Of a DNA stretch of 64,000 nt, positions 1,041 through 61,247 are shown in pieces. Source of the DNA: Cyanidioschyzon merolae (lineage: Eukaryota); the NCBI GenBank assembly GCA_000091205.1, contig AP006495.2, one strand, 5' to 3'. The notes below the pieces were generated by a model. The model was not told the origin of the DNA and made no database searches. It saw only the letters and a program-made list of their open reading frames with translations. Each line of letters starts with the position of its first letter. Positions within the stretch are counted from its first letter, which is position 1. The translations under genes were made by a program, and so were the position numbers.

Positions 1041-1190
1041 GGAACTATATGAGACAAGATTGAAAGCATTCGTACATGGCCCGCCGAGAAAGCCTCCGAG
1101 GCGTCTGCACATCAGTTGGCATCGTCTTGTCTAGGGCGGGACACTCGCCACTACTGTACCACTGGCAGCAACGTTTTTCTTTTGAAAAGC
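220..1190 (+). mobile_element. Repeat-family copy a (Fanzor/TnpB-like element remnant). It is homologous to 24816-25797; identity is near-perfect up to ~1030 and then falls to roughly 70% before ending in a conserved block 'ggcagcaacgtttttcttttgaaa'.
   Basis: Direct comparison of the two loci in the sequence. Homology stops at ~1190 / ~25797, after which the flanks are unrelated. Confidence 0.55.
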
Positions 1191-1595
1191 GTTTGCTGTC
1201 GGGGCTTCTCAAGGCCGAGCGCCCGGTCAACGTCGCGCTAGGCTGAACTCACTGACCTACGAGAGACGCCTTCCTAGTGTTCGTCTCGGTGCCTGGCGTT
1301 TGCATGGAACTTTCTCGACAGTCTATATCTGTTTCCACACTTTTACGACTGTTTACGTAGCCTTGACTGGTAGGTATCGGTAGCAGACTAAAACGCGGGT
1401 AGACTTTCGGTGACCGAATAGCCAAAGCGAGTCTGTCCTGTGCTAGGACGCTGTTGCTCGGCAGTCTCTACGCGACATAAGCGTCCCACTTGGTGGTCGT
1501 TGCTGCTGTTATTGTCGTGGTGTTGTTCTTGTTGGTGTCGGAGGTGGTAACTGGATCCGTGTCTCAGAACATTCCTGCCTCGCGGGTGCCACGAA

Positions 1596-4370
1596 ATGGC
1601 TTTCGTCAGCACTGTCCATTGCTCGAGGTTTCGCCTCTATGAGACTTGCGGAGCTCAACGCTTGATTGCGTTCTCCGTTCGGTGGCGGTCGTTGAAGCGC
1701 TGTCGCCTGAGACCTGTGTGCGAGTTGTCGAGCGATGGGCAGCTGGAGCCGCGGCGTAATCCGCTGAACAAAGCCGATGATTCGAGCGAAGGACAGGAAC
1801 GCTCTGAATCCGAGCGTTCGCAGTGGACTGAGGAAGCGCGCCGCCAGTGGCCCGAGTACGAGCCGGGCTTTGTGCCACGCTCCCGGAACGACCTGGACGC
1901 AGAAGAATACCCGACGAGCACCCCCGGCGACAGCAGTGGTGGTGCCGGCATCGCTGCGGGCTACGTGACAGGCTCCCGAGAGGTGATCCATGATCCCGTT
2001 GTCGTGTCGCGACGAGAGCTTCTCTACGCTGTGATTAGTATTGCAATAATCGTCACAGGCATTCTGGGGACAGTCTATCGTCGCTCGCTTCGCTGGTTTT
2101 CTCTAGCCGGTGTCTTTGGAAGCCTGCGACGTCGATACCCGCCACCGAACGCAAATCTGCGAGAGTTCATGATGGAGTGTGAAGCCGGCGCTGGACCGGT
2201 AGCACCGGCGCTGCAACACTGTTATTACATTCAGTGGCTGGGGGGTGCCTCCTCAGCACTTGAGGCTGCTCCTGGACATTGCACGGGGAAGAAGCTCCTC
2301 GTGCTGCTGCTTTGGCGAGCCACCGATTCGGGAACCGGGGCTGCCCTGGACGTTCTGGAAAACCTGCGGCCATATATGGACTTTATTGACATTGTCTGCA
2401 TGCACACGCCCAAATTCGATGGCGAACGCCCACCCCGCTTCGTTCAACTCTCTGCCAAGTACCATGAAATGAATTTTCCCTACGGAGCTGATGTCTCGCT
2501 TCGTCTGTGGCGGGATCTCGGAGTAACGGTCTGGCCCACTGCAGTTGTGCTTTCACCGCGTTCCAAACGAGTGTTGTTCGCCTTCGAGGGCTACCGTGCG
2601 CTCCCCCGAATTCTGCTATGTGTTCGCGCTGCTATCGACTTTTACTTTCCCCGGCGCGTGGCAACGCAACCGCCTCCGGAGCCTTCCTTGCGTTCGGAGC
2701 AGCTACCCTCTGGTAAGTCGGCTCGGCTTGGGGCGCACTCTGATGCGTTTCCTATATCCGCAGGTGCTTTGAGCGAGCTGCTGGAGAACAGACGGCGAGC
2801 GCTGGCGTCTGCTGAAGACACCGCTAGTCTCAAGGAGCAACGAAGCTCCACTCGTACTTCGAAGCGCAGTTCACGAAAGCGCGACAAGGCCTCCCCCGAA
2901 TCGCGACTACCAACCCGCTCGCCACTGCCTCCGCAGGACGTTTACGGGCGCCAGATACTCGCTCTCCTGGATACATCTCGCCAAGCGCTCGCTCTGCGGT
3001 TTCCCGGCAAATTAGACGTCCACGCTGAGAGCGATCGTCTGTTTATTGCGGATAGTGGCCACCACCGGATCCTGGTTACCAAACTCTCTGGTGAATTCAT
3101 CGAGCAGATTGGTGGACGAGAGGGTGCCGGCTTTCGAGACGGTACCTTCTCCGAGGCGCTTTTCCAGTACCCCCAGGGCCTAGTCTTTGATCCACTGGGA
3201 AATCGATTGATTGTGGCAGACTCGGGAAACAATGCACTGCGTATTGTCCGTTTCTCGGATGGAACTGTGAGCACCGCATCTGTGGCACCACTTGTCAAGG
3301 AGACCGACGTGCAAGGCGTCATGGAGCGCAGCATATCCATGCAGGACCGCGAATCCGGGCGGCACCGAGCGGCTGTCTCGGCAGCAGCAACAGAGCCACC
3401 TGCAGCGTCCGAAGGAACACCGTTCTGGGCCTGGCAACGACGCTGGTTCAAACCAGAACGAACGCGTCCTGCGGTGCAGCGTCAATACGAGCAGTTGCTC
3501 AGCGTTGCGGACGCCGATGTGCGCTTTGCCGAGGTCAACGACCGCTCCAACAACACGAGCAGCGCTGCCAAATCCAACAGCAAACCAGGAACCACACACC
3601 AAAGAACTGGCATCGCTGCAAATAGCTCGCCGCTCTCGCTAACACCGAGCCCACGCAGTCGTTTCCGACTTCCCTGGGATGTCAAGATGCATGCCGGATC
3701 CGTTTATGTGGCGGTTGCAGGATCGCACCAGATATGGCGTTTGGATTCTACCGGGATCCTCCGAGAATACCGCGGTAGTGGCAAACCAGGCCTCGTGGAT
3801 GATGCCGAGGGCTCCCGGGTTCCGGTGTCGTTTGCGGCGCCTCATGGTGTGTGCGTCCAGGGGACGTGTCTCTATGTCACAGACTCGGACTCGTCTACGG
3901 TTCGCGCCATCGACCTGCGCGCTCAGTGGACACGAACGATTGTAGGCGGCGACGTCTTCTTCCTCGAGAGCCTGTCAACGTTTGGCGACCGAGACGGCTG
4001 GGGCCGCGGCGGGCACCTCCAGTACCCGTGCGGGTGTTGTGCGCTTCCAGATGGTCAGATTCTGCTCGCAGATACGTTGAATCACAAGATCAAGGTATTG
4101 AACCTGGAGCTTCGAGACGTCCGAACGCTGGCTGGGTCCGGAGAGCCTGGGCTCCATGACGGTGCCAGCACACAGGCAGCTTTTTTTGCTCCACAGGGCA
4201 TCGCATACGATCCCACCGTTCGAATGGCGTATGTTGCGGACACGTACAATCACTGCATTCGACAAGTCGACGTTGCCACGGGCACGGTGCGCACGCTCAC
4301 CCTGACTCCTCCGGCGGTTTTGGAAGCGCTCGCTGCGCCCGCTGCGGAAACCTCACCCAACGGTCGATAG
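1596..4370 (+). CDS. NHL-repeat beta-propeller protein with one TM helix and a thioredoxin-like region (NHLRC2 / SOQ1-like architecture), 924 aa.
   Basis: TM helix 'LLYAVISIAIIVTGILGTVY'. A Trx-fold-like stretch 'KKLLVLLLWRATDSGTGAALDVLENL' follows. Six NHL blades are recognisable (e.g. 'LFIADSGHHRILV', 'NRLIVADSGNNALRIV', 'LYVTDSDSSTVRAIDL', 'AYVADTYNHCIRQVDV'). The 924-aa ORF is uninterrupted. Confidence 0.8.
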   Translation: MAFVSTVHCSRFRLYETCGAQRLIAFSVRWRSLKRCRLRPVCELSSDGQLEPRRNPLNKADDSSEGQERSESERSQWTEEARRQWPEYEPGFVPRSRNDLDAEEYPTSTPGDSSGGAGIAAGYVTGSREVIHDPVVVSRRELLYAVISIAIIVTGILGTVYRRSLRWFSLAGVFGSLRRRYPPPNANLREFMMECEAGAGPVAPALQHCYYIQWLGGASSALEAAPGHCTGKKLLVLLLWRATDSGTGAALDVLENLRPYMDFIDIVCMHTPKFDGERPPRFVQLSAKYHEMNFPYGADVSLRLWRDLGVTVWPTAVVLSPRSKRVLFAFEGYRALPRILLCVRAAIDFYFPRRVATQPPPEPSLRSEQLPSGKSARLGAHSDAFPISAGALSELLENRRRALASAEDTASLKEQRSSTRTSKRSSRKRDKASPESRLPTRSPLPPQDVYGRQILALLDTSRQALALRFPGKLDVHAESDRLFIADSGHHRILVTKLSGEFIEQIGGREGAGFRDGTFSEALFQYPQGLVFDPLGNRLIVADSGNNALRIVRFSDGTVSTASVAPLVKETDVQGVMERSISMQDRESGRHRAAVSAAATEPPAASEGTPFWAWQRRWFKPERTRPAVQRQYEQLLSVADADVRFAEVNDRSNNTSSAAKSNSKPGTTHQRTGIAANSSPLSLTPSPRSRFRLPWDVKMHAGSVYVAVAGSHQIWRLDSTGILREYRGSGKPGLVDDAEGSRVPVSFAAPHGVCVQGTCLYVTDSDSSTVRAIDLRAQWTRTIVGGDVFFLESLSTFGDRDGWGRGGHLQYPCGCCALPDGQILLADTLNHKIKVLNLELRDVRTLAGSGEPGLHDGASTQAAFFAPQGIAYDPTVRMAYVADTYNHCIRQVDVATGTVRTLTLTPPAVLEALAAPAAETSPNGR

Positions 4371-7010: not shown

Positions 7011-7061
7011 GTAAGCGGAGGCGGGAATCGGGGAGTCTTCTGTGCCCGCCACGGGCATGCA

Positions 7062-7433
7062 GCGAGCGATGTGGCAAGCGCTCACACGGCATGAGGCAGC
7101 CTCCGGAGGACGTCAAGGCGGACACACAGGAAAGTTCCTGACCACACTCAAGTAGCGAGCGATGTGGCAAGAGCTCACACGGCATGAGGCAGCCTCCGGA
7201 GGACGTCAAGGCGGACACACAGGAAAGTTCCTGACCACACTCAAGTAGCGAGCGATGTGGCAAGAGCTCACACGGCATGAGGCAGCCTCCGGAGGACGTC
7301 AAGGCGGACACACAGGAAAGTTCCTGACCACACTCAAGTAGCGAGCGATGTGGCAAGCACTCACACGGCATGAGGCAGCCTCCGGAGGACGTCAAGGCGG
7401 ACACACAGGAAAGTTCCTGACCACACTCAAGTG
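7062..7433. repeat. 93-bp minisatellite, 4 tandem units.
   Basis: Unit 'gcgagcgatgtggcaagRgctcacacggcatgaggcagcctccggaggacgtcaaggcggacacacaggaaagttcctgaccacactcaagta' begins at 7062, 7155, 7248 and 7341. Units are contiguous with no spacers. Confidence 0.95.
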
Positions 7434-7898
7434 TCATCGCCGCGACAGGCGCACCGAGTGTCCATCCAAAGAAGCTTCAGTGAGCAAGCGCAACGTCGAT
7501 CGCAGCTTCCGCCTTTAGGTAAACAATGCGATAAAAAAGCAGCAGTCGGAAACAACGAGCATCGGCACGCTTTATCTGCTATGAGTGTCTATCGACAGTT
7601 GCTCATAGAGCTGGAGCCCCAGAAGAGACCGACGTTCCTAAAAGTTGGAGATAAGACGCGGGAAACCGTAGCAGTCGAAAAAAAGTTTCGCATACGCAGG
7701 TATTGAGGATAGCAAGAAGATGCCGCAAACACGAGGGCGTGCGTTCGGGTCCGAGGAACCCCCCCCCCCCGGTTCCAAGCCACGGCGCTGTGGATGTTCC
7801 AGGACGCTGCGCGTTGCGAGTCCGCTCTGCGAGCGCGCATTTTCCGTGTCCCAAGTATACAAATTCATATAGTTCTGTCCTGACATGTACTACACGGA

Positions 7899-12599: not shown

Positions 12600-14650
12600 T
12601 AACGCTGTTCTGAGATGGACGAGGAACACCGAACGGAAAAAGGAGATACGTTCAGCGTCAAAAAAGGCGCTCTTGAAGTGAGCTTGCGGTCCATGGTAGA
12701 AAACGACCCAATGAGCAGTTTAGCGAAAGAAAAAGCGACGGTCGTAGCCGCCACGGGCGTCTCTGGCTCTCATCAGCTTGCTCGTATGGTTCCGAACACA
12801 CTCGGATAAAGTCGCAAGAAAGAGTCCGGGTTCACGCACGGCCATCTTGCATCGGAGTCGCAGCTATGACAAACAGTTCCTGGAACGTCGCGACGTGTAT
12901 GGAACACAGCGACATCGGTTTGTCTTTTTCAGTCGATGGGGCTTGCTCCGGACGAAACAGTCAGCGCTTGTTTGGGTATTCGCATAGCGGGGGCCCGTTA
13001 TACGTACGACCGATCTCGAAGAGAACGAGGATATCATTATCAGTTCTGGTTGTAGTGAATACAAGTTGCGGCCTTCGTTTCGCAAGTGGAGGACGCACAC
13101 ACACACACACATACACACATCAATGACTCCGTCAGCGCACTGAAGACCGTGTCCTGACGTCTGGCAACGTCCGTCTATTGGAGAACGTCGAATTTCGCCA
13201 TTCTCCCTACGTTCATGCTTTTGCCGATGCTGTCGGGATAGATCTGCATATCATTTCGCCGCAGGCTCCGTGGTTCAACCCCATCGAATCAGTATTTTTT
13301 ATGGTGAAACGGAATGATCGCTCCACTGGGCGAATAGCGGAAGCGTTCAGCACACGGTGACACACCCGGGCGCACGTCGTCTTTCTTGTGCAAGTCCTTC
13401 TCCAACCGGAAAGGTCGTCACCTAACGACATATACACGTGTATTCCATTTGAAGAAAGGAATATCCAAGGGAAAGGTATGGACGTGCGCGTCGAGGATCC
13501 TGGTGTGCCGTCATCACCAGGTAGAACAACAACCGAAAAACGAAGAAAATCCTCTTCTCGTCGATCATTGAGAGAGCGACGAAGAGCAGCTTACGACGAA
13601 GAAGAGGATGACCAGGAGAGATTGACGACAACAAACGTTTGCTCGACGTAACGATGACGAGACTGTAGTGGCAAAGCGAGCACGAGTTCGAGGACTCGCA
13701 GCAAAAGTGACTTTAGCCATCGTCAATGCACCCAGGGCGTTCGTGAACCGAGACTTGAACGCCGTCATCAATATCAGAAGATATGTGGTACTGAAGACGA
13801 AACCCGCGGAGCTGGCTTGATGTTATTTTATGGGGCAGCATCTCAGGCTCGAATTGTGCCTGGATGAATACTAGAACCGATAGAAGGCAGCCGGTCAAAA
13901 AATAGGCCGGGCGGCGTCTGCGAGTGAGTTTGTATTCACGCTCCATGGTCGTGAATCATTTCTCGTTCCACTGGCTTGTTGTTTTGAAGAATCAAGATGA
14001 TTCGCGACGCCCGCCAAAAAGGTGTATAACGTACCCCAAGTCACGAGCCAACGCTTACGCACGAGCCTCTACGCCTATCCATTCCATACATATGCAGTGG
14101 CCCAGTGATACATGCTTCAGGTTTTCGATCTCTCTGTTTCAAGGCGACTCGTGTGCGCAGCGATTCGTGCCACTGGTCTGAAGAGGAAACATAAAACGCG
14201 ATGCTTCCTTTTGACGACTCGTCCACAGGCAAATGCGGAACGGTCGCTGAACTTGTCAGGCCACGAAGCCGCTTCCGTGCGAAAGACCAATCCTGCTTTC
14301 GTTTCGAGCATAGGCGAAACGGCGCTTGACAACACCATGATAGCTCGCACAGCATAGACCGTGCGACGCCCTCATCTCTTCTGACTGCATGAAACTGGGA
14401 CTTCGACTCGGGCTTTCGTCATCGCAGCGATTGCGCCCAGTAGGGGAAGCGTAGAGAATTCGAGTTTGTTTGACTTTGTCTAGAGCCCGGATTTTCCTTT
14501 CGATCCTTGTTTCAGTATGAATGGGACTGCGCTCCACAAATCCATGATCCATTGGAACAGCATTCGCCTGCGTTTGCAGCGTACATCGTACTCGCTCATG
14601 GAATCGCCCAGAACACGCCAGTACTGGTAGGGTGCGGCATCGAGCGCGAA
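12600..14650 (+). mobile_element. Repeat-family copy c: decayed Fanzor/TnpB-like element with ~400 bp of degenerate N-terminal region, RuvC-I and RuvC-III motifs, plus a ~700-bp tail.
   Basis: The upstream region (12870-13180) is homologous to 35090-35400 of copy d ('ctgacgtctggcRacgtcc..ctattgga', 'cgRtttgtYtttYYcagtcgatgRg'). The tail is homologous to 6320-7010. Confidence 0.5.
13178..13790 (+). pseudogene. Fanzor/TnpB-like RuvC nuclease remnant, copy c. The RuvC-III motif is intact.
   Basis: 'FADAVGIDLHIISPQAPWFNPIESVFFMVKRNDRSTGRIAEA' (RuvC-I 'GIDL' at 13230-13250). '...RARVRGLAAKVTLAIVNAPRAFVNRDLNAVINIRRYVVLKTKP' at 13660-13800, where 'RDLNAVINI' is the D-x-NAA-x-NI RuvC-III motif. The two segments are in different frames and stop-interrupted. 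Confidence 0.55.
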
Positions 14651-22875: not shown

Positions 22876-23490
22876 GGACGTCGACTAGCGACCGAGGCAC
22901 ACAGACTCCCGGTACAACGCTAGCTCCAGATAATGTATGCCAGATTGCCTTATTGTAATTGACGTCGTCGTCGGTAGCGTTGTGGCTGCTGAAGCCATTT
23001 CTTCGATGAGAAGACGTTTGTATGGATCATGGATTCTAGATTGTGGGGTGGATATTGAAATCAATGCCAGTGCTCAATATGATTCGCTCTTACGCCAAGT
23101 TTCATGGTCTGTTCTCGGATATACTGGTAATTTCGTATGTTCTATCGTGCGCTGAGTACCTGCATTGCTGCATCCGCAATAGAGCCAATGCTGCTAGTGC
23201 GGATGCTGAATGGAGACAGAACGGTTTTGCCATATCCATGGGGGTATCGGATCGAGGAATGCTTCATTGAATACGGAATCGGGATTCGTCAACATTCTGG
23301 AAGCCTGGGAGATGTGCAGTTAGACCTACTGCCTGCAGCAGCGCGAAGCGATATACTAGGAGTGATCAACGACCAGGGTGATGCCCAGTCGCAGCATACC
23401 CGCTCCTAGTCCCAGAATAAAGCGCATTGCGAACGAGTTGCTCAGATCTAACCAAAGTACCTGTCACTGGGGCGGACATGAAGCGCAAGC

Positions 23491-24221
23491 TTGGGAACCT
23501 GTCTTCTTAAACATATCAAGGATCCGTACAGGGAAAAGTTGCGAGAGGCCATTAGGAACCGTGTCGACTCGTACTCCAAGAGTATTCTCAAGGCGTCGTC
23601 AGGACGGATGCATTTGGCGAGGGAGATGTATCGCGATGTGGCGCACATGGAAACGGTCGAGATTCCGGGCGAGTTCGTCAACAAGACGTTTTTTCGATAC
23701 CTGAAGCATGGTACAGCGGGAAGCGCGGAGGGAAAATGAGCGGAATCACGCCCTCCACGAAAAATACCCTTTACAGCATCAACGGTACTCGATACAAGGG
23801 TGACTGGGATATCTACGCATACGGGGCGATGAAGTGCGTCACGAACCTGAAGAATCATTTGACAATGAACGTCGAACGTTTCATGATACGCGCCGTGTTT
23901 GCACTTTACCCGGGCCAGTCTCGCAAAGGGATACGGGCGATTCTCAACGGCATAAGGAACGATCGCAAGCATGAACATGAGATCGAATTCGTCGACGAGA
24001 AGGCGTCAAACCAGAGCACGAATGAGGTCTTTGTCATCCGTGCGGTTATACAAGAGCACCGTGCGGCGCTGGCGCTGGTGAATCCAGCAGAAAAGATATC
24101 ACAGTTGAAAAAAGATAAGGAAAGATCCTATCGCCTTGTCCTGCGCTATTTTCTGTTTCTGGACCGAGAGCTCGAACGCAAGGTGGAAATGAAGAGTGAG
24201 AGAGATGGAAGTCTATCCTAA
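23491..24221 (+). other. Two consecutive ORFs in different frames (82 aa + 161 aa) immediately upstream of repeat copy b. They are of unknown function and may be part of the same element or an unrelated decayed gene.
   Basis: ORF track only ('...LVLRYFLFLDRELERKVEMKSERDGSLS'). Similarity to the region upstream of copy c is weak and unconvincing. Confidence 0.2.
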
Positions 24222-24433
24222 TGGGTAAGCGCTTCAACGTCGTTCCAATGCGCAACATCAAGTCACATTTTGTGAGTATCGACTCTGGCGTCTTTTGCAG
24301 CATCATGAGCGAGATCAGTCCTGAGTTCGATGTTAGCAGAGAGGACTTCACTGGCGAAAACCATGAGACGCACTGAAAGAATATCTTCGATTTCAAAAGT
24401 CTCAAAGTCAGAAAGCGAAATGTATCCACGGGG

Positions 24434-25640
24434 ATGATCGAAACCGATGGAGTAGCTTTGTGTGTACACTATCGGCGGTTGAAGATAAATCGTCCAGTTC
24501 CGCCCTCGGCCGCGCCCGTCACGAAGGATGAAGAAATCAAAGAGGCGGATCCTGCGACGCAGGAGGTGCATGACAAGGGCCTCGTCGTTGACGCGGTGAA
24601 GCATGAAGATGAGAAGGAGGCGGATCCTGCGACACAGGAGGTGCATGACAAGGGCCTCGTCGTTGACGCGGCGAAGCATGAAGATGAGAAGGAGGCGGAT
24701 CCCGCGACACAGGAGGTGCATGACAAGGGCCTCGTCGTTGACGCGGCGAAGCATGAAGATGAGAAGGAGGCGGATCCCGCGACGCAGGAGGTGCATGACA
24801 AGGGCCTCGTCGTTGGCACGGACCCTGAGAATACGAATATCATGACCATCGCAGCACCGAAGCGTGCGGTAGATGGCATTGACGGCAACTTACGTGAGAG
24901 CGACTTGCGTCTGTTGAGGTTCTCAAGAACTAGATATTCTCGAGAATCCGGTATAATGACTGCGAGGAAGAAAATTGAGACACGGAATGCAGGAATGAAG
25001 GATCACCTGGAAGCTTTGAGCGCGCTGACGACCCGATGAGCGGACTTTCAAGCTTTTATGAAATTCATGCAAGTTCGCGTTGCTCATTGGGATGCGCTGT
25101 GGAAAGAGTACACCAAGCCCCGGTGGGCTCGATTGCGAATGAATCTACACTGTGGGAAGCGGCGCGCGTTCGCGAACTTTTTCAATCGGCTGAGCGCCCT
25201 GAAGGGGAATGAAAGTCAGAGGCTCATAGTAGCTTATTGGGCTGGGCGCTGGATGACCCAAAAAGGAACGACGCCAGCCCCGACGACAAGAACGTACAAG
25301 GAGTGCGCACACTGTTTCGTCACGATACCTGTAGATAAGTTCCGAACATGGTATACACGCCACGAGCTGGGGTGTACACTTCAGAGAGTCGAGAAAGAAA
25401 AGTGCCAGCGGAGCCCTGGTGATATACAAACGTACGGAGCGCTGACGGAAGAGCAAATGGAAAGAAGGGCGAAAGTTCGAGGATTGCTCGCATTAGAAAG
25501 TACAACTACGAATGGCGAGAAACGCGTAGCGTTTGTGCATTGAGACTTGAACGCCGCATGCAGTGGAAGGATATGTGCGGTGATGGAAAGAAGCTCCCAT
25601 AGTGGACAGGAGAGAACTTTGTGGGACAATCACTAAAAGT
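24434..25640 (+). pseudogene. Degenerate TnpB/Fanzor-like ORF, copy b. ORF 24434-25039 and ORF 25058-25543 are followed by an in-frame TGA at 25541-25543 inside the RuvC-III motif ('VH*DLNAACS').
   Basis: Same motifs as copy a: '[13 protein letters not shown]' at 24866-24904, 'TRTYKECAHCF', 'RVAFVH*DLNAA'. Confidence 0.5.
24516..24815 (+). repeat. 75-bp tandem repeat array, about 4 units. It is coding-frame compatible and forms the N-terminal part of ORF 24434-25039.
   Basis: Same unit as 1-220. The ORF shows '[19 protein letters not shown][A/V]KHEDE' four times. Confidence 0.9.
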
Positions 25641-25797
25641 TGAACTATATGAGAAAACCATGGAAGCAGGAGTAGATGGCCGCTCCAAAAAGACGTGACA
25701 GAGTTTGCACCTCAGTCAGAGACTTCTTGTCTAGAGCGTATTTCTCGCCACTACTGCGTACTGCTGCCGGCAGCAACGTTTTTCTTTTGAAAGACGT
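24816..25797 (+). mobile_element. Repeat-family copy b body and 3' tail.
   Basis: Homology to 220-1190; the conserved terminal block is 'ggcagcaacgtttttcttttgaaa' at ~25772-25795. Confidence 0.55.
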
Positions 25798-26028
25798 TCG
25801 GTGTTTAGAAATCGCCGGCGCTGGCTCATCGGCTCTCTCCTGTGTCGTCTATTGACGCAAAGATTTGTGTTTTTTGTGCTTCCTAGCTTCGACGCTGAAG
25901 CGTTTGCGGCGTGCTCAGTGAACTTTGTACTCTGTTCACTGATCGGTAATCCGGGACGCGTTATACGACGCGCGCACTTAGCATTTATTGGCTACTTTTC
26001 GAGCTCAATCTTCCAAGCCTAAGTTTCA

Positions 26029-28953
26029 ATGGCACCTGCTCGTGGAGATTCAGAGGCGGCTCCAAGCGCAGACGCACCGACAACGCCCGCTTGCTGGCCC
26101 AGTTCTCGTGTGCGTCAAACATTCATCGATTATTTCATCGACAGGGGACACACTTTCGTAGAGTCGTCACCAGTGGTGCCTTTCGACGACCCGACACTGC
26201 TCTTCACCAACGCTGGTATGAACCAGTTCAAGCCCCTGTTCCTGGGTCGGGTGGATCCGACCTCACCCCTATTCGGCCTGAAACGCGCGTGTAACACCCA
26301 AAAGTGCGTGCGTGCCGGTGGGAAGCACAACGACCTGGACGATGTCGGCCGGGACACCTATCATCACACCTTTTTCGAGATGCTCGGCAACTGGTCGTTC
26401 GGCGACTACTTCAACGCCGAGGCGATCAACTGGGCATGGGACCTACTGACCCGCGTCTACGGACTCGATCCGGACCAGCTCTACGCAACCTACTTTGGTG
26501 GAGACGCTGCGAACCAGTTGCCCGCCGACCTTGATACTCGTGACCAGTGGCTGCGCTACCTGCCACCAGAGCGAGTGCTTCCATTCGGAACCAAGGATAA
26601 TTTTTGGGAAATGGGCGAGACTGGACCCTGTGGTCCCTGTACGGAAATTCACTATGACCGCGTTCGGGGTCGACCCGCGCACCAAGCTGCTGCCCTAGTC
26701 AATGCCGGTCACGAGTCGCTGATCGAGATCTGGAACCTCGTGCTGATCCAGTTCAACCGGGAACCAGACGGACAGTTGCGTCGGTTGCCTGCGCGTCACG
26801 TCGACACCGGCATGGGACTGGAACGTCTCTGCGCAATTCTGCAGGGAAAATCCTCAAACTACGACACCGATATGTTTGCGCCTCTGTTTGCAGCGATTCA
26901 GCGAGAGTCTGGATCGAGTGAAGCGTACGCTGGTCGGCTGGGTGCCACCGACTCTGCACTCACCGACACTGCCTATCGAGTTGTTGCCGATCACATACGC
27001 ACCCTGACGTTTGGCATCGCCGATGGGGCGGTACCCTCGAACGAAGGTCGAGGCTACGTTCTGCGCCGTATCCTGCGCCGCGCTGTGCGCTACGGGCAGC
27101 AGTTTCTGAACGCACCCCGCGGTTTTCTACACCGGCTCGTTCCGGACGTCGCACGGCTCTATCAAACGACGTTCCCTGAGGTGGCTGCAAAGGCTGACTA
27201 CATCGCTGGTGTCATTCAAGAGGAGGAGATGGCATTCAGTATGACGTTGAAACGCGGGTTGGATCGTTTCCACGAGACTGCACGGGCGCTCGTCGCGGCG
27301 GGTGAGCGCGTCTTTCCTGGCAAAGAGGCCTTCTTTCTGTATGACTCGATGGGCTTTCCGCTGGATTTGACCCAAATTCTGGCGAGGGAACGGGGCCTTG
27401 AAGTTGACGTCGAGGCATACGAGTCCGAAATGGCTCGTCAACGCGCGCAGTCGAGTGCTGCTCATCGGAAACGGCTCGGAGCGGCAGAAGCGCTCGTGCT
27501 CGGACCAGAGCCGCTTGCTGTCCTCTCTGAGCAATGGAAGATTTCACCAACAGACGACTCGCACAAGTATCAGTGGTACGAACCGCTCGAATGTACCGTA
27601 TTGGCGATCTACGCTGGCTCCGAGGGATTTTTGCCGGCTGCAGAGACCGGTGACGACGCCTGTGTTGGCGTCATTCTGGATCGAACGCCCTTCTACGCAG
27701 AGGCTGGCGGCCAGGTCGCAGACACCGGCCGTCTGGATGAGCGGTTTCACGTAATCAACGTGCAATCTTTTGGCGGCTATGTCGTCCATATCGGCTACGG
27801 TCGCATCGCAGTCGGTGAGCGAGTGATCGCGCACGTGGACTACGAACGACGGGCGCTGGTGGCGCCGAACCACACCGCTACGCACATCCTGAACTGGGCA
27901 ATATGGCAAGTCCTTGGCCAGCAGTGTGACCAGAAAGGTTCGTTGGTTGATGAACAAAAGCTCCGTTTTGACTTTGCGTACGGCCGTGGGCTCACCGCTG
28001 CCGAGTTAGAGCGCATCGAGCAGTGCTGTCGTGAAGTGATCGCTCGCAATTTCGTGGTCTACACACAGCAGGTCTCTCTGACAACCGCGAAGCAGATACG
28101 ATCGTTGCGCGCGGTATTCGGTGAGACCTACCCCAGTGAGGTTCGTGTCGTATGCATCGGAGCACCGGTGGAGAAAGTGCTTGCGGCTCCTGTGCAATCC
28201 GACTGGGACCAGTATTCGATTGAGTTGTGCGGGGGCACCCATTTACAGCGCACCGGGGAAGCGCACGCCTTCTGTCTCGTGGAAGAGGGCGCGATTGCGA
28301 AAGGCATCCGACGCGTGGTGGCCCGTACCGGGGCCTCAGCGCTCGAGTGCATGGCACTCGCGCGAGGTCTTGCCAGTCGCCTTCCGCCGGTGCCTGTAGG
28401 GTCCGCGGCTGAGAATGGTGCAAGCGGCGCTTCTGTGGATGCTTCCATGCCGCCCGTTGATCTGCTGACGACCTTGGCCGAGTCGCTCAAGGCGATCACC
28501 ATATCGGCGTCGGAGAAGGAGCGCCTTCGACAACGTCTGGACTATTGGGAGCGGATGGCTCGGAAGCAAGCGAAGCAGGTAGCCGCGGCACGCGAGCAGG
28601 CTCTCGTGGATGAGCTCGTACGGCTCGTGAACAATCCGCAGCAGGACGCAGGTTCACCAGTACGGCAGGTTCCCGTTGTTGTGGCTGCGCTTCCTATTGA
28701 CGGTGATCGCCGGATCCTGCAGGGCATGCTTCAGAGCGCCCTCAAACGTCTAGGCAGCGGGGTATGGGCGCTTCTGATTGCATCGCCGGAGCGCAACGAC
28801 GAATGCCTTGTTGGATGTGTCGCCGCGTACGAGGCGCAGCGCGCTGGTCTTGACTGTAGCCGATGGTTGACCGAAACCCTGGCCCCTTGGCATGGACGCG
28901 GTGGTGGCAAACCGGACGCAGCACGCGGCTCCTGTCGATTGCTTTCACCAATC

Positions 28954-28994
<41 letters not shown>

Positions 28995-29214
28995 CGCTGA
29001 TAGGACAGCGTCGATTCGAGAGGGGGATCCTGAACGAAACATCTATTATCTGGACAAAGCACTCATAGCTTTACATGATAGTATATTAACAGACAAAAAG
29101 GAAATTGCAGGGCTTCGACCGCTGCTGGAGCGAGCGGCACGCCTAGCGAATGCCGCGCTAGCGTCTTCCTTCGTTTCGACATCGACGTCGACGAGATCGG
29201 GGTCTGCTGCATAG
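26029..29214 (+). CDS. alaS: Alanyl-tRNA synthetase (class II), 1061 aa, with a polyglutamine insertion near the C-terminus.
   Basis: N-terminus 'SSRVRQTFIDYFIDRGHTFVESSPVVP'. Motifs 'FTNAGMNQFKP', 'NDLDDVGRDTYHHTFFEML'. Editing-domain 'HTATHILNWAI'. Q12 is encoded by (CAG)12 at 28957-28992. Confidence 0.95.
28957..28992 (+). repeat. (CAG)12 coding microsatellite producing Q12 inside alanyl-tRNA synthetase.
   Basis: Read directly from the sequence; the ORF shows 'EQQQQQQQQQQQQD'. Confidence 0.95.
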
Positions 29215-35029: not shown

Positions 35030-35930
35030 TGCTTTCATTAATCAGGTCAGACATACCACAGTAATCAGACTTCTACCGAAATGGCAACTCCGGAATTCCG
35101 CGAACGTCGCTATCCAGATAAAGCACATGAACGTCGGTTTGTTTTCCCAGTCGATGAGACTTGCTTCGGACGAAGCGCTCGGAGCGTATATGGGTATGTC
35201 GGAAAGGATGCCCGTTGCACGTCCGAATGAACTCGAAGAGAACGATAGCATGATATATTCTGGGTGCAGGGGATTCATTTTGCGGCCTCAGGTTCGCTGG
35301 TAGTGGAGGCCCATGCAACAGCACCAATCACTTTGTCAAATCATTGCAGACTGGTGCCTGACGTCTGGCGACGTCCCCCTATTGGACGATGTGGTATTTG
35401 ACAATTCCGTTTGCGTTCGAGCTTTTGTGAATTTTATAGATGTCGAGCTGCTTCTCATTCCACAGTAGGTTCCGTGGTTCATCCCCATCGAAGGAGCGTT
35501 TCCTAATCGCCAAACGTAATGATCGCAAAACTGGGCGAATCGCTGAAGCGTCCCCCACACGTTTTTACTCCGAGGGCGCATTTCGTGTTTCTTCCACAAG
35601 TCCTCCTCGCTCCGGGATGGTGTGTACCTAAGAGTAGCAAGAAACGTGTTCATTTTTGAAGAAATACAATACCGAAGGAATGATCTGGGCTGTCCACTGT
35701 AGAAGGTCGAGATGGACCGAGGGCAGCGCATGGCTTCGGCGACAGAAAAATACGGAGCGATGACAGAGCACAAACTGGCATCAAGGTCTCGAGTTCGAGG
35801 ACTCGTTGCATTGGTGAGTCCCACCAGACGCAATAAACGCATGAAATTCATGACCCAACGCTTCAACGCTGCCATCAATACGACGAGATGTGTGGTACCG
35901 AAAAAGAGACCCACGGAGCTGAGGTGATCC
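35030..35930 (+). mobile_element. Repeat-family copy d: decayed Fanzor/TnpB-like element fragment between the SNF2 and starch-synthase genes.
   Basis: '...RFLIAKRNDRKTGRIAEASPTR' parallels 'VFFMVKRNDRSTGRIAEAFSTR' in copy c. ORF 35712-35927 'SRSRVRGLVALVSPTRRNKRMKFMTQRFNAAINTTRCVVPKK' carries a degenerate RuvC-III 'NAAIN' motif at 35861-35890. Upstream DNA is homologous to copy c. Confidence 0.45.
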
Positions 35931-47832: not shown

Positions 47833-50800
47833 GCACCTCCAATGCCCGTGGCAAACCTATTCAAATGCTTCATACTTGCTCGTTGACGTCAGCCGTAGCT
47901 CGCGGAGAAGCGCCACACCGAACAGATGCGTTTGTCGTGACATGCGCGGCATGTATTCGATACATGGGCAGTGCAGGGAATACCCGCTGGAGGAGGCTAG
48001 GGCGCTCGTTTACAGCGAGGAAATTCGCCATATGCATCGGACGGCTCTGTTCCGGGAAACGTAGTAGTTGCGCATGATGCGAGGAAGGCAGGCTTCCTGT
48101 CCCAAGCATCCCGGCTAGATGACCGCTGTCGGGCCGATGCTGAGAGCAGCACGTTGCCCTTGAAGGATGGCAGGGAGCTCTGGCTCGCGTTGCGACATAT
48201 CCGCAGAACTCGCAACCAACTCGAGCTCTTCTGCCTCCATCCGGCTCATCAGTTGCTTCCACTAGCACCAGGAGGATCCGTTCCATCCGTCATTATCGAT
48301 CTGGGCCAGTAAGGTGACTATACAACGCCCACAAGCTGTGCTTCTTGAAGTGCTCGACACGAACCCGCATGTGAATTTGGCTGTTGCGATTAGTTCGACG
48401 CTTTCTGAGACCAGCGCTGTAGATGCTCTGGTCGCCCCAGTCCAGCTGCGACGTGTCCAGGTACTCTCCGAAGCGCGTTGTGAACTCACTGATCCTACAA
48501 CCAGACCCTATGTCATATTCTCTATCCGGTGTATCGGAGTTGTTGTCGCACGAAGGTTTGATCCATCAATTCCTGATGAATGTTGATAGCTGGCAGCCCT
48601 GCGTCCCGGACTCGTATGAACAGCTGCTCGTCGAGGTACGGCAAGTCGGGTAATACTAGGTGAGCATTCCCAAAGCCAGAAGATAAGCGAAGTTGAATGG
48701 CGTCACGGATAGTTTTTGGATATGAAGCATATGCGCATCTGTCGAATGAATGCTTGTACATAAAAATTCCATTGGACATTGCAGAAGACGTCATGGACGG
48801 GATGGGTCCAAATCCCGGGGCCTCACACGAAAAGCAGCACAACGCCGATACCCGCTACGTGCTCTTTGGCAGCATATTTGTGACGAGGAGCGACATTGTC
48901 TCGGAGGCAGACCAGGGAATGCAGGAAGCCGAAGCCGCTAGTTGCGTTGACGATGCATGAGGTGTTTCATGATCCTTTCCGTATGGAGCATTGTTACCGA
49001 CTGCATGATTGCGTCTCCACTAGGGGTGAAGTTGTTGTGAGGATCGCTTCTCGCTTCGCTACGAGCAGTAGGCTGCCGCTCTGTAAGCACCCATGGACAG
49101 GTCGATCACTCCTCCCGAGTAGCGGTTCATAGCGCGAGACGAGCACCTGTTCCTCATGGGATGCGCAATCCTCTTTCAGGGCGAACCCGATAAAGTCTTG
49201 TCTAAAAAAGAATGGGACGGTCTCCCGTAGACAGGCGCGATTTTTTCGTTGCCCATCCGTGCCGCTTCATCCCCGTTCATATGCACCGTGCGAAAAACGT
49301 CACATACTGTGGTATCTCATGGAGTATCGCCCAGAGAGCATTCGGATTGCAACGGAATAACAAGAAAACAGCCTAGTAGATGGTGTCGGATTGGTTCTTT
49401 TCGGGTGCACGACGCTCGGAATGAAGGATACGAGAACGATCGGTCATCCAAGTGCTGAATTTTGAACGAGCGACCTGGACAAGCGAGGTGTTCTCTTCGC
49501 AGGCGAGCGGCGACAGCATTACGTATTTGCACAGCGCCTTCGTCAATGAAGAGAGGACATACCTTCTGCCAGATACCTGAGAAAAAAATCAAACATAAGC
49601 AAAAGAGCTTCCCATTAAAGATAGGCGGGAATGCGCTTCGATCTCTGCGGTTCGACCGGTCGATGCTTCATCTTCAAAATTACGAGATAAAAGAGCACAG
49701 CTAAGGTAGGCATAGGCCTGCAGCACCTAAGGGAGCGAAATGTTTCGCCTCTATAGAGTCTATATAGATATCTACCGACGCACAGGCGCATCCTAGTCGT
49801 TTTTGACCGGCACCTGTTATCGGTGTCAGTTGCTCTCCCAGCACACTTCGAGACCGAGAGGCTGCCGCATAGAGTTGTATCGCGTCAGCCCCTCGGGTCT
49901 CGTCTTCAACAACGCACATCGTCTGATCTGGATAGCAGCACTGAAGTCTCGGCTCACGGAAACCATGCGTTTAGTTGCCTCTGTTTGAACTCACAAGTGC
50001 CAGGCGTCCTCGAACGAGCGCCCTCTGTGTCACCACAGTCTCGTAATCATCCCGTCAGGCAAACACGTTTTCTCGTCTATCTCCAATCGACATCTTCTTC
50101 TTCTTCGTTGCTTGCTCTTCTGCGCCTGATTGTCGCCGAGAAGGAGATCTTCCACGTTCTTTCCTGGCAGCCGGCGAAACGGGGCCTCCAGGATCCGCCA
50201 CGCTCACTTCCATCACTTTATTTTGTTTTGAATATGAACCCGATGTCGAACGCGTCTGCCTTGAACCGCGAAGCATGACTTGAATACACGAGTGTGAAGG
50301 CTGAAGCACAGCCGACTTGCCGGACGATACGTTGCAATGACTTTAACGCAAATACAGCTCGGACGTCAGAGGAACCCGCTCATCATCATCGTGATCGCGT
50401 TTCTCCTCAACGGCGAGATACGCATCGCATCCCATGCCTGCCAGATTTGGAGGTGCGCGTATCGACCCCGCTATATAGAAAAAAGAACACAAACGAACAT
50501 CTAACTAGCAACGAGATAACGATTTCTTTCCACCGCTACGATCAAAGTCAAACAGAGGAAACGTTTTCCGTATTGTCGAAAGTTTACCTTCCAGACGAAA
50601 GGTCCCGCAAGCCGGACGAGTCGATCGGGCTCTCGCGCCATATTCCTCCGTAGGGGCGGGTGCTGTAATGAGACCTGAGCAACTCGTCGGCAACGCAGTT
50701 TATTCTGGGACTCGGAGCGGGTAGCCTGCGTCTGCGCGTCGCCCTGGTCGCAGTGGACTCCTAGCAGCTCGCTTCCCGCTGTCGCAGGCAGTGGATCTGT

Positions 50801-51243
50801 CAGCACATCTTCCATGCTTCCAGAATGCTGATGAATCTCGATTCCGTATTCACTGAATCATGCCGCAAGCGGACGCCCTCAGTAGTATCCCAAAGCGGCG
50901 CTGTCTCTGTGCTCCATCCGCACCATCTGTAGCGGTGCTATTGCGGGTGCTTACCGCGGGTACTAGATGCTCGACAGAACGTACGAAACTACAAGTACGT
51001 ACAGCAGAATGCATACGTAATGGGACTTGAAGAAAGGATCCAGCATCATGGACGTTTTGTCGATTACCAATACCCATCCCACAGTCGGGGATCCGCGGTC
51101 CATCGAGACGTACTGCCGAATCGCACCAATCAGCGCAATGATCTCCTTGACGCCCGGTATTCGAGCTCCTTCTCTACGATCAGGAAACGTACGCTTGCAG
51201 CGCTGCGTTGCGGTAGGCAGTAGAAGCACGGAGCTCGTTACAA

Positions 51244-60389: not shown

Positions 60390-60639
60390 GCTGTTACCGA
60401 TGATCGACTCTAAACCGTCTCAAATTATCCCATGATCGACTAGGTATGTACCAGAGCGTCTTGACGAATACCTCTTGTCGTGTTGAGGCACTGATCAACG
60501 AGCTTTCTCGTGCCTGCTGAGCTGCAGGTGCAGCGGCACTGGATTATCCACTGGGCGTGTCGTGCGTACCGTGTGTGTCGAGTCTGGTGGCGGCAACACG
60601 TGCGCTGCGTACGTCTTGCCGCGGAAGTGACGAAATGCC

Positions 60640-61175
60640 AAGGTAGTGAGAAACGTAATCCCTGATAGCAAAATGTATATCTTCGTATTCAATACATGAA
60701 CGCCTCTGATTCCCTTTGGAGAGAAGGACTATGCGAAGGCACTGAGAAACCTAATCCCTGATAGCATCATGTATATCTTCGTATTCAATACATGAACGCC
60801 TCTGATTCCCTTTGGAGAGAAGGACTATGCGAAGGCACTGAGAAACCTAATCCCTGATAGCATCATGTATATCTTCGTATTCAATACATGAACGCCTCTG
60901 ATTCCCTTTGGAGAGAAGGACTATGCAGGCACTGAGAAACGTAATCCCTGATAGCATCATGTATATCTTCGTATTCAATACGTGAACGCCTCTGATTCCC
61001 TTTGGAGAGAAGGACTATGCGAAGGCACTGAGAAACCTAATCCCTGATAGCATCATGTATATCTTCGTATTCAATACATGAACGCCTCTGATTCCCTTTG
61101 GAGAGAAGGACTATGCAGGCACTGAGAAACGTAATCCCTGATAGCATCATGTATATCTTCGTATTCAATACATGA
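60640..61175. repeat. AT-richer ~96-bp satellite, about 5.5 tandem units (94-96 bp each), between RNR1 and the next gene.
   Basis: Unit 'tgagaaacStaatccctgatagcaWMatgtatatcttcgtattcaatacRtgaacgcctctgattccctttggagagaaggactatgc(gaa)ggcac' starts at 60647, 60743, 60839, 60933 and onward. Confidence 0.95.
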
Positions 61176-61247
61176 AACAATGCCGTCTCACACCCGAAAT
61201 CAATTCCGACCGCCTGGCTGCAGCTTGGCCTCGGACCGGGTCAGGAG

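Follow-up and report, generated by a model that had tools for sequence, protein, structure and literature searches.

A candidate two-hairpin omegaRNA scaffold at the right end of the CMe-1A Fanzor1 transposon family of Cyanidioschyzon merolae

Two Fanzor1 pseudogenes end in the same block

The subject of this analysis is a 64,000-nucleotide stretch of Cyanidioschyzon merolae DNA (contig AP006495.2, assembly GCA_000091205.1; hereafter the window) in which two copies of a Fanzor1 transposon of the CMe-1A family, A and B, end in the same 3′-terminal block of ~70 nucleotides (nt) at 1131-1200 and 25731-25805. Copy A (1-1134, + strand) is the 3′ part of a CMe-1A Fanzor1 pseudogene, cut by the start of the window and ending at the ancestral TAG at 1132-1134; copy B (23004-25805, + strand) is a pseudogene that by blastn is 5′-complete relative to the published consensus, and its 3′ module (25731-25805, + strand) consists of a TAG at 25732-25734, a degraded first stem-loop (SL1), a 5-nt insertion, and an intact apical hairpin. 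Within the window the pattern TCTTGTCTAGNGCGN5CTCGCCACTACTG matches at 1125-1156 and 25725-25756 only, and GCAGCAACGTTTTTCTTTTGAAA at 1165-1187 and 25770-25792 only; neither pattern was matched in 100 shuffles each. The string tcttgtctag represents the final codons and the ancestral TAG of the Fanzor frame (...ENFVG..LHISWHRLV*). A stop is kept at the aligned position in 39 of 60 family copies, and in some relatives the codon is CAG or CAA, with gene callers running through the block (P0005, P0050, P0043).

Homology ceases right after the block, as a sequence-only reading of the window had proposed when it pointed to a common terminal block in the two young copies; both parts of that proposal hold. 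The pairwise BLAST alignment of A and B ends at 1199/25804, column identity among 51 non-redundant family copies is at background (0.30) from ~1196 onward, and the sequence beyond the module is unrelated from copy to copy.

The block is the right end of CMe-1A

The block is the right end (3′ terminus) of a CMe-1A-family Fanzor1 transposon. CMe-1A is a Fanzor1 family of C. merolae (Bao & Jurka 2013, Mob DNA 4:12, PMC3627910), present in ~150 copies each ~80% identical to a Repbase consensus of 3169 base pairs (bp), and the CMe-1 protein is a Fanzor1 of 734 amino acids (aa); the element has no terminal inverted repeats, no defined target-site duplication, and no known transposase, and it is unclassified (PMC3627910). 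The 3′ end of the consensus holds the block, as ...GTCTAGGGCG..GCCACTACTGTAC..GGCAGCGTTTTTCTTTTGAAAGGCG (PMC3627910 supplementary file 2), the terminal letters being ...GTCTAGGGCGCGTTTGCCGCCACTACTGTACACCGCTGGCGGCAGCGTTTTTCTTTTGAAAGGCG, also given as ...CGTTTTGTCTAGGGCGCGTTTGCCGCCACTACTGTACACCGCTGGCGGCAGCGTTTTTCTTTTGAAAGGCG. Copies A and B both align through the last consensus base, 3169, at window positions 1191 and 25796. By blastn against the consensus, copy A is 84.4% identical over 1053 bp (142-1191 corresponding to consensus 2117-3169), and copy B is 75.7% identical over consensus 1-494 (23004-23494) and 83.8% and 84.4% identical over consensus 1075-3169 (23498-25796). Nucleotide similarity at the level of the family (~80% being typical) and the same 3′ terminus place both copies in CMe-1A. 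They are the same element as the one published, likewise old, mostly decayed, and without terminal inverted repeats, and they encode the same Fanzor1 protein; no RNA or hairpin at the 3′ end is described in the CMe-1A paper, and one is described here. Conserved sequence outruns the published consensus end by ~5-15 nt, as TTYGNTG..., and in one sub-family reaches ...CCAGGGGT; the published consensus terminates within the hairpin structure described below.

The conceptual protein has 53 close homologues in a predicted-protein search, all metagenomic and 53-74% identical. These homologues and the family consensus carry the D...E...RD motifs GADPGNTN, VDEFRTS, and NRDFNAA; the window copies translate to a TnpB/Fanzor-like frame with GTDPGNTN, VD(K)FRTS, and N*DLNAA. 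The published Fanzor1 motif, D-X(125-275)-[TS][TS]-..zinc finger..-RD with a RuvC Asp-Glu-Asp (PMC3627910), is found in the family consensus and in the homologues but not in the window copies, the C4 zinc finger having a degenerate form (HH..C..C). The C-terminus of a more distant homologue, P0054 (E = 1.3e-19 to the query), matches the TNB region of TnpB, with E = 1.8e-5 and 25.2 bits against PF07282, below the cut-off of 26.3, and E = 2.9e-6 against NF040570 (guided_TnpB).

Both young window copies are pseudogenes, relics with dead nuclease genes. They have in common two in-frame TGA codons, a -1 frameshift near 990, and a Glu to Lys change in RuvC-II (VDKFRT); the Arg of the RD motif is a TGA stop (N*DLNAA), other stops are present as well, and in copy B an internal deletion of consensus 495-1074 takes out the ATG at 906.

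The block folds into two hairpins on the sense strand

In both minimum-free-energy and centroid structures, the block of copy A is predicted to fold into two stem-loops, SL1 and SL2, separated by a 5-nt linker. SL1 (1132-1153, + strand) reads UAG-GGCGGG / ACA / CUCGCC-(A)-CUA, has up to 9 bp, and begins its 5′ arm with the stop codon. SL2 (1159-1204, + strand) is a long imperfect hairpin whose apex at 1172-1191 is CGUUUUUC-UUUU-GAAAAGCG; a T5-C-T4 run at 1174-1183 (+ strand) supplies the apical 5′ arm (T5C, 1174-1179) and the loop (T4, 1180-1183). The sense strand of 1131-1209 folds at -37.9 kcal/mol with z = -6.18, and none of 200 dinucleotide shuffles folds as well; the opposite strand gives z = -2.7. 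Copy B (25731-25812) yields z = -0.95, its apex being intact at 25777-25796 as CGUUUUUC-UUUU-GAAAGACG. In these models the copy A fold appears intact, and the apical hairpin alone appears to survive in copy B. Conservation, energy, and strand bias give good support to SL1 and the apical hairpin; basal SL2 (1159-1171 with 1192-1204) is a prediction only.

The two-hairpin plan across the family

A metagenome scan with the C-terminal protein alignment produced 388 relatives, of which 80 loci were kept; these gave 60 non-redundant 3′ ends, 36 of them with a recognizable 20-nt apex core. When each copy was folded, the plan of SL1 followed by a long SL2 appeared in most of the 60 3′ ends. A covariance model of SL1 and SL2 built from 12 variant I copies (defined below) finds the module within the window in copies A (1131-1200, 88.6 bits) and B (71 bits) only; of 81 related loci it hits 71, each time just past the Fanzor C-terminus, so that the block does recur in other family members. 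No module was found by this model (E<=10) in two older C-terminal relics in the window, copies c and d, whose 3′ parts had been proposed for comparison.

The apex occurs in two forms. Variant I (19 copies) is CGTTTTTC-TTTT-GAAAGGCG, and variant II (17 copies) is CGTCGTTCGA-CTT-TCGAACGGCG, a distinct perfect 10-bp palindrome without the T-run. The two variant consensuses differ at 12 of 34 positions and both fold, at -11.0 and -18.9 kcal/mol, respectively; 12 random substitutions give -11 or better in 2.5% of cases and -18.9 in 0 of 5000 trials, and when the substitutions are confined to the same 12 positions -18.9 is reached in 0.56%. The sense fold is more stable than the antisense fold in 31 of 36 copies (Wilcoxon p = 2e-6), in keeping with the many U:G pairs, for example GAAAGGCG, GAAAAGCG, or GAAAGACG opposite UUUUU; the T-run columns form U:A and U:G pairs in 13-15 of 15 variant I copies. 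Among 53 copies, 81% of SL1 cells are paired as against 36-67% with slid partners, and apex cells are paired in 90% (variant I) and 93% (variant II) as against 24-56% with slid partners. A conserved secondary structure comprising SL1 and at least one further stem is thus found across the family. With both variants in one plain MAFFT alignment RNAalifold failed, the apical hairpins of the two being in different registers.

We do not claim a basal SL2 stem in which GUACACNN pairs with NNGUG past the published end, since partner-swap tests are negative within variants. Single cases of such pairing do occur: L012_4223 is complementary at 11 of 12 positions, L056 has CACGC/GCGUG, and L047 has CACGG/CCGUG.

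Divergence upstream of the block

Copies A and B are 96-100% identical over 222-1021; beyond that their identity falls abruptly, the values being 72% (1022-1071), 60% (1072-1121), 70% (1122-1166), and 85% (1167-1200). The diverged segment (1022-1124, + strand) lies past a mosaic breakpoint near 1025 and comprises the final ~35 codons of the ancestral Fanzor frame. In that frame the C-terminus of copy A reads ENFVGHPLNVELYETRLKAFVHGPPRKPPRRLHISWHRLV* and that of copy B ENFVGQSLKVELYEKTMEAGVDGRSKKT*QSLHLSQRLLV*; the segment has no indels, stays in frame, and retains family consensus residues. Both C-terminal versions occur in the family (...VVHGPP in P0017, ...GGRSKK in most others), and the 3′ segments of A and B are each ~75-82% identical to metagenome relatives, an ordinary family distance. 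The A/B pair is therefore a mosaic, in which at least ~800 bp was recently homogenized or co-duplicated and the last ~175 bp comes from two old lineages; hence the strong divergence just upstream of the block. The last ~91 nt of the open reading frame (ORF) show no excess of RNA structure (z = +0.8 in A and +1.2 in B). We therefore reject the diverged ~100 bp, which remain in-frame coding sequence, as structured RNA, and an extension of the scaffold into the last, diverged 150 bp of the ORF is not supported either. The description of ~30% divergence followed by a conserved end is accurate for the A/B pair (60-72%, then 85%) but not family-wide: identity among the 51 non-redundant copies is 0.74-0.89 in coding columns, 0.71-0.77 over 1121-1165, and 0.55-0.61 in the T-run hairpin. 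A low-identity stretch followed by a conserved end is a contrast particular to these two copies.

A candidate omegaRNA scaffold

Given the observed family identity, position, fold, family spread, and sense bias of the two-hairpin module, we think it probable, by analogy with Fanzor1 and TnpB, that the module is both the omegaRNA scaffold and the right end of the element. Its transcription, protein binding, and guide function would then resemble those of its counterparts: i) the ~70-75-nt module beginning at the nuclease stop codon would have encoded an omegaRNA scaffold transcribed in the sense direction; ii) this omegaRNA would have been bound by the Fanzor protein; iii) it would have run 3′ into flanking DNA, the presumed source of the guide; and iv) the same sequence would have doubled as the mark of the right end of the transposon. 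The placement is that of an omegaRNA, since the module lies on the sense strand, starts at the stop codon at 1132, and is followed by the end of homology at ~1196-1204. In SpuFz1 a scaffold of ~75 nt extends from the stop codon to the right inverted repeat and is followed by a variable guide of 14-15 nt (PMC10432273); cryo-EM of the SpuFz1 and PpFz1 omegaRNAs shows a 7-bp SL1 and then a single SL2 (PMC11423790); and other Fanzors, including one borne by a Chlamydomonas Helitron2, have conserved structured 3′ RNAs (PMC10530073). Our literature search found no description of an RNA for a C. merolae Fanzor.

Several observations weigh against this interpretation. Covariation is weak: i) covariation in SL1 does not go beyond shuffles (53 copies); ii) there is none in the variant I apex; iii) variant II has one compensatory pair (G:C to U:A) in 3 copies, which 17 of 500 shuffles equal; iv) a model-fitted alignment has 78 double-sided changes against 30 expected, a number reached in 0 of 500 shuffles, but that alignment leans towards the structure and its counts largely amount to the single split between variants I and II; and v) basal SL2 fails an alignment-free partner-swap, with p ~0.05 for all copies and 0.3-0.9 within variants. 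Block conservation does not exceed that of the preceding ORF family-wide, perfect palindromes can come from templated mutation instead of selection, and a strand-biased hairpin would equally suit a signal for single-stranded-DNA transposition. The family is mostly decayed, at least 400 open codons upstream of the stop being found in 4 of 60 copies. As to the nuclease itself, the conceptual protein has no direct match in Pfam, NCBIfam, or PDB sequence and profile searches, and because these were empty the family was named through its metagenome homologues and the literature; an AlphaFold2 model of the homologue P0010 (18-sequence alignment) has a pLDDT of 39.7 and is unusable, so that the putative Fanzor assignment draws on motifs, the literature (PMC3627910), and an indirect chain of homology. 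The proposal that the block is an omegaRNA scaffold and right end is therefore borne out in position, in the two-hairpin sense fold, and in recurrence at 71 of 81 loci, and is not helped by the weak covariation or by the basal stem; likewise the hairpin is kept through 12 changes between the variants, with little or no support from within them.

The CMe-1A family has been published, as has the rule that Fanzor and TnpB guide RNAs sit at the 3′ end of the element. What is new is a concrete two-hairpin candidate for the omegaRNA scaffold (~70-75 nt) of this red-algal Fanzor1 family, together with two alternative apices, a possible means of asking which features the nuclease or the transposition machinery recognizes. 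For the most part this accounts for the sequence and reveals no new system, and within the window the module is a relic on two dead genes; yet the hosts are thermoacidophilic Cyanidiophyceae and a few near-intact copies exist in hot-spring metagenomes, and the module may offer a way into rebuilding a compact, possibly heat-tolerant RNA-guided nuclease.

Alternative explanations

The main rival, which we regard as unlikely, holds that the end functions at the level of DNA, the hairpin being a single-strand cis signal for a transposase, like the hairpins of IS200/IS605 or Helitrons, with no role for RNA. CMe-1A has neither terminal inverted repeats nor a defined target-site duplication or known transposase (PMC3627910), and its ends must therefore somehow be recognized; 5-15 nt separate the hairpin from the end of homology; the strand bias would suit RNA and single-stranded DNA alike; a DNA signal read by shape would tolerate the exchange of one palindrome for another; and Chlamydomonas Fanzor1 genes sit in Helitron2 elements with terminal hairpins (PMC10530073). 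The element has, however, neither a CTRR 3′ terminus nor a TC 5′ start; the family has no known HUH or Y1 gene; no matching left-end hairpin was found, comparison of the right end with sequence upstream of the left end giving no significant similarity in 16 of 17 copies; and G:T wobble is weak in DNA, yet U:G pairs are found in 10-13 of 15 variant I copies. A DNA-level end is in any case compatible with an omegaRNA scaffold, since the right end doubles as the omegaRNA template in all characterized TnpB and Fanzor elements.

Because two alternative perfect palindromes occupy the same site in two sub-families, one can also imagine that the hairpin is selected for its shape and not its sequence, and that it would act both as a cis signal for HUH-like or RNA-guided single-strand mobilization and as the last stem of the omegaRNA. 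We rate this combination as rather improbable; if true, it would make CMe-1A a eukaryotic counterpart of IS200/IS605 logic and provide a route to how ‘orphan’ Fanzor1 elements move.

Two minor rivals are weaker still. A structured sense-strand element that starts exactly at a stop codon retained by most copies, and whose SL1 takes in that codon, might belong to the 3′ untranslated region (UTR) of the Fanzor mRNA and serve stability, 3′-end formation, or the context of termination instead of guiding a nuclease; but the structure reaches the very end of the element, a UTR would call for a poly(A) region further downstream yet still within the element, and Fanzor genes are known to have 3′ guide RNAs (PMC10432273, PMC10530073) but not 3′ UTR hairpins of such a class, so we give this explanation little credence. 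Still less do we favor the idea that the block is functionless and the likeness of A and B a leftover of family identity in two decaying pseudogenes: both copies are indeed dead, block identity between them (70-85%) does not go outside what the family shows, and conservation of the block is no higher than that of coding sequence, but this would leave unexplained the strong, strand-biased fold, a hairpin kept through 12 substitutions, and a module that ends where homology ends at 71 of 81 loci.

Least credible of all is the suggestion, also made in the sequence-only reading, that the T5-T4 run is an RNA polymerase III (Pol III) terminator of a small gene at the element end: sense runs of at least 4 T do occur at 1174-1183 and 25779-25788, but the run forms part of a conserved hairpin (its 5′ arm and loop), in 17 of 36 relatives the site reads CGTTCGACTTTCGAACG with no T-run beyond TTT, termination at this point, internal to the element and upstream of the guide start, would remove the guide, and no Pol III-type gene was detected, there being no tRNA genes, no Rfam family reaching the gathering threshold anywhere in the window, and no meaningful match within 1000-1300 at E<=10.

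Comparison with known systems and element ends

The module resembles Fanzor1 omegaRNAs in position, size, and two-stem plan. With the SpuFz1 omegaRNA (PMC10432273, PMC11423790) it has in common two stem-loops, SL1 of ~7 bp and then SL2, and a variable flank after the conserved part, which in SpuFz1 supplies the guide; unlike SpuFz1, CMe-1A has an SL1 that overlaps the stop codon. In SpuFz1 elements there are 30-nt inverted repeats, absent from CMe-1A, and ‘ghost’ copies that carry the RNA, which has been seen by small-RNA-seq and cryo-EM. The CrFNuc fRNA of the Chlamydomonas reinhardtii Helitron2 (Jiang et al. 2023, PMC10530073) likewise belongs to an algal Fanzor1 with a conserved structured 3′ region; there the 3′ UTR region yields a guide RNA, within a transposon that has terminal hairpins, but CrFNuc elements have recognizable Helitron2 ends and short target-site duplications, whereas CMe-1A is unclassified and lacks CTRR and TC termini. 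In the reRNA/omegaRNA of IS200/IS605 TnpB (for example ISDra2), the right end is at once the transposon end with a sub-terminal hairpin and the template of the scaffold, and the 3′ flank is the guide; in bacteria the overlap between the scaffold and the 3′ end of tnpB is extensive, whereas the last ~90 nt of the CMe-1A ORF have no excess structure, and IS200/IS605 elements have a TnpA partner, none being present with CMe-1A.

Other types of element end were rejected. For a Helitron or Helitron2 3′ end, a hairpin is present, but CTRR is absent from the last conserved ~20 nt of both copies (GCGTTTGCTGTCGGGG; GACGTTCGGTGTTTAG), the consensus 5′ end is CGATGAC and not the Helitron TC start, and there are no terminal inverted repeats (PMC3627910). 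A direct repeat of the SL2 5′ arm in the ~30 nt upstream of the left end, which would have pointed to insertion into older SL2 loops or to paired ends like those of IS605, was rejected, z > 2 being reached in only 1 of 17 copies. Paired ends of the IS200/IS605 type were dismissed on the same insignificance of left/right similarity noted above and on the lack of TnpA.

At the left end, some features were noted by eye. The CGATGAC start of the consensus may sit in the loop of a short hairpin, CGTTTT...AAAACG (~22990-23040), of which apparently compensatory variants are seen among 5′ ends L002-L068 (TCTT/AAGA, TTCT/AGAA, ATTTTG/CGAAAT) in low-complexity T/A runs; conservation also seems to extend ~15-20 nt upstream from the published start (G.GNTGATTTYTYTC).

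Other family members and neighboring features

A metagenome copy, L033 (Ga0080006_1163603), ending near 3047-3115, has an open frame of 739 codons in which the DPG, DEFR, and RDF motifs are present; its aligned stop reads CAA and its terminal hairpin is variant II. By its sequence it is a candidate for a still-functional Fanzor1 locus.

The Fanzor frame contains a tandem repeat of 75-bp (25-aa) units at 3-221 and 24522-24821, just ahead of the RuvC-I motif GxDPGNTN, with at least 3 units in copy A (where the window start cuts the array), 4 in copy B, and ~1 to 6 in metagenome homologues.

The window also holds the two old Fanzor C-terminal relics mentioned above, copy c (13685-13930, + strand; consensus 2849-3093, 67% by blastn) and copy d (35680-35922, + strand; consensus 2737-2982, 71.5% by blastn). 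Copy c (~13175-13930) is preceded by a relic of a DDE_3 (Tc1/mariner/IS630-type) transposase (PF13358, E = 3.3e-5), and a similar DDE_3 relic was seen, by eye only, upstream of copy d (~35380-35922); both may represent an older Mariner-plus-Fanzor1 element like that of Bao & Jurka. A solo CMe-1A 5′ region (50155-51111, - strand; consensus 11-964, 78%) corresponds to TE-N2_CMe, which shares the 5′ 635 bp of CMe-1A (PMC3627910); this is a sign that the 5′ part spreads without the Fanzor gene or the 3′ module.

The same CMe-1A insertion, ~225 bp upstream of the AlaRS start, is present in five metagenome contigs (L083-L087) at 93-99% identity and looks fixed in that metagenome population. The element’s 3′ module is the break point of 3 of these 5 contigs, the repeat fragmenting assemblies. 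A search for an empty site that would give the exact ends found none, and because every one of the five orthologous contigs carries the insertion the exact element boundaries could not be fixed. The AlaRS gene itself (26029-29214) is 99% identical to a JGI hot-spring metagenome protein, 74% to Cyanidiococcus yangmingshanensis, and 60% to Cyanidium caldarium, with a further 71% protein cluster of NCBI source. These matches place the host among the Cyanidiophyceae red algae. Protein identity of the AlaRS to named species peaks at 74%, and DNA identity of the transposon copies to the C. merolae consensus is ~84%; either the host is nearer to C. merolae than those names suggest, or conservation of the family exceeds that of a housekeeping gene, possibly after transfer among Cyanidiales.

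In general style the window is eukaryotic, with 56% G+C, long intron-free ORFs, and no tRNA genes. It also contains tandem arrays unrelated to Fanzor at 60545-61212 and 7049-7513, made of 96-bp units repeated 6 times and 93-bp units repeated 4 times, respectively.

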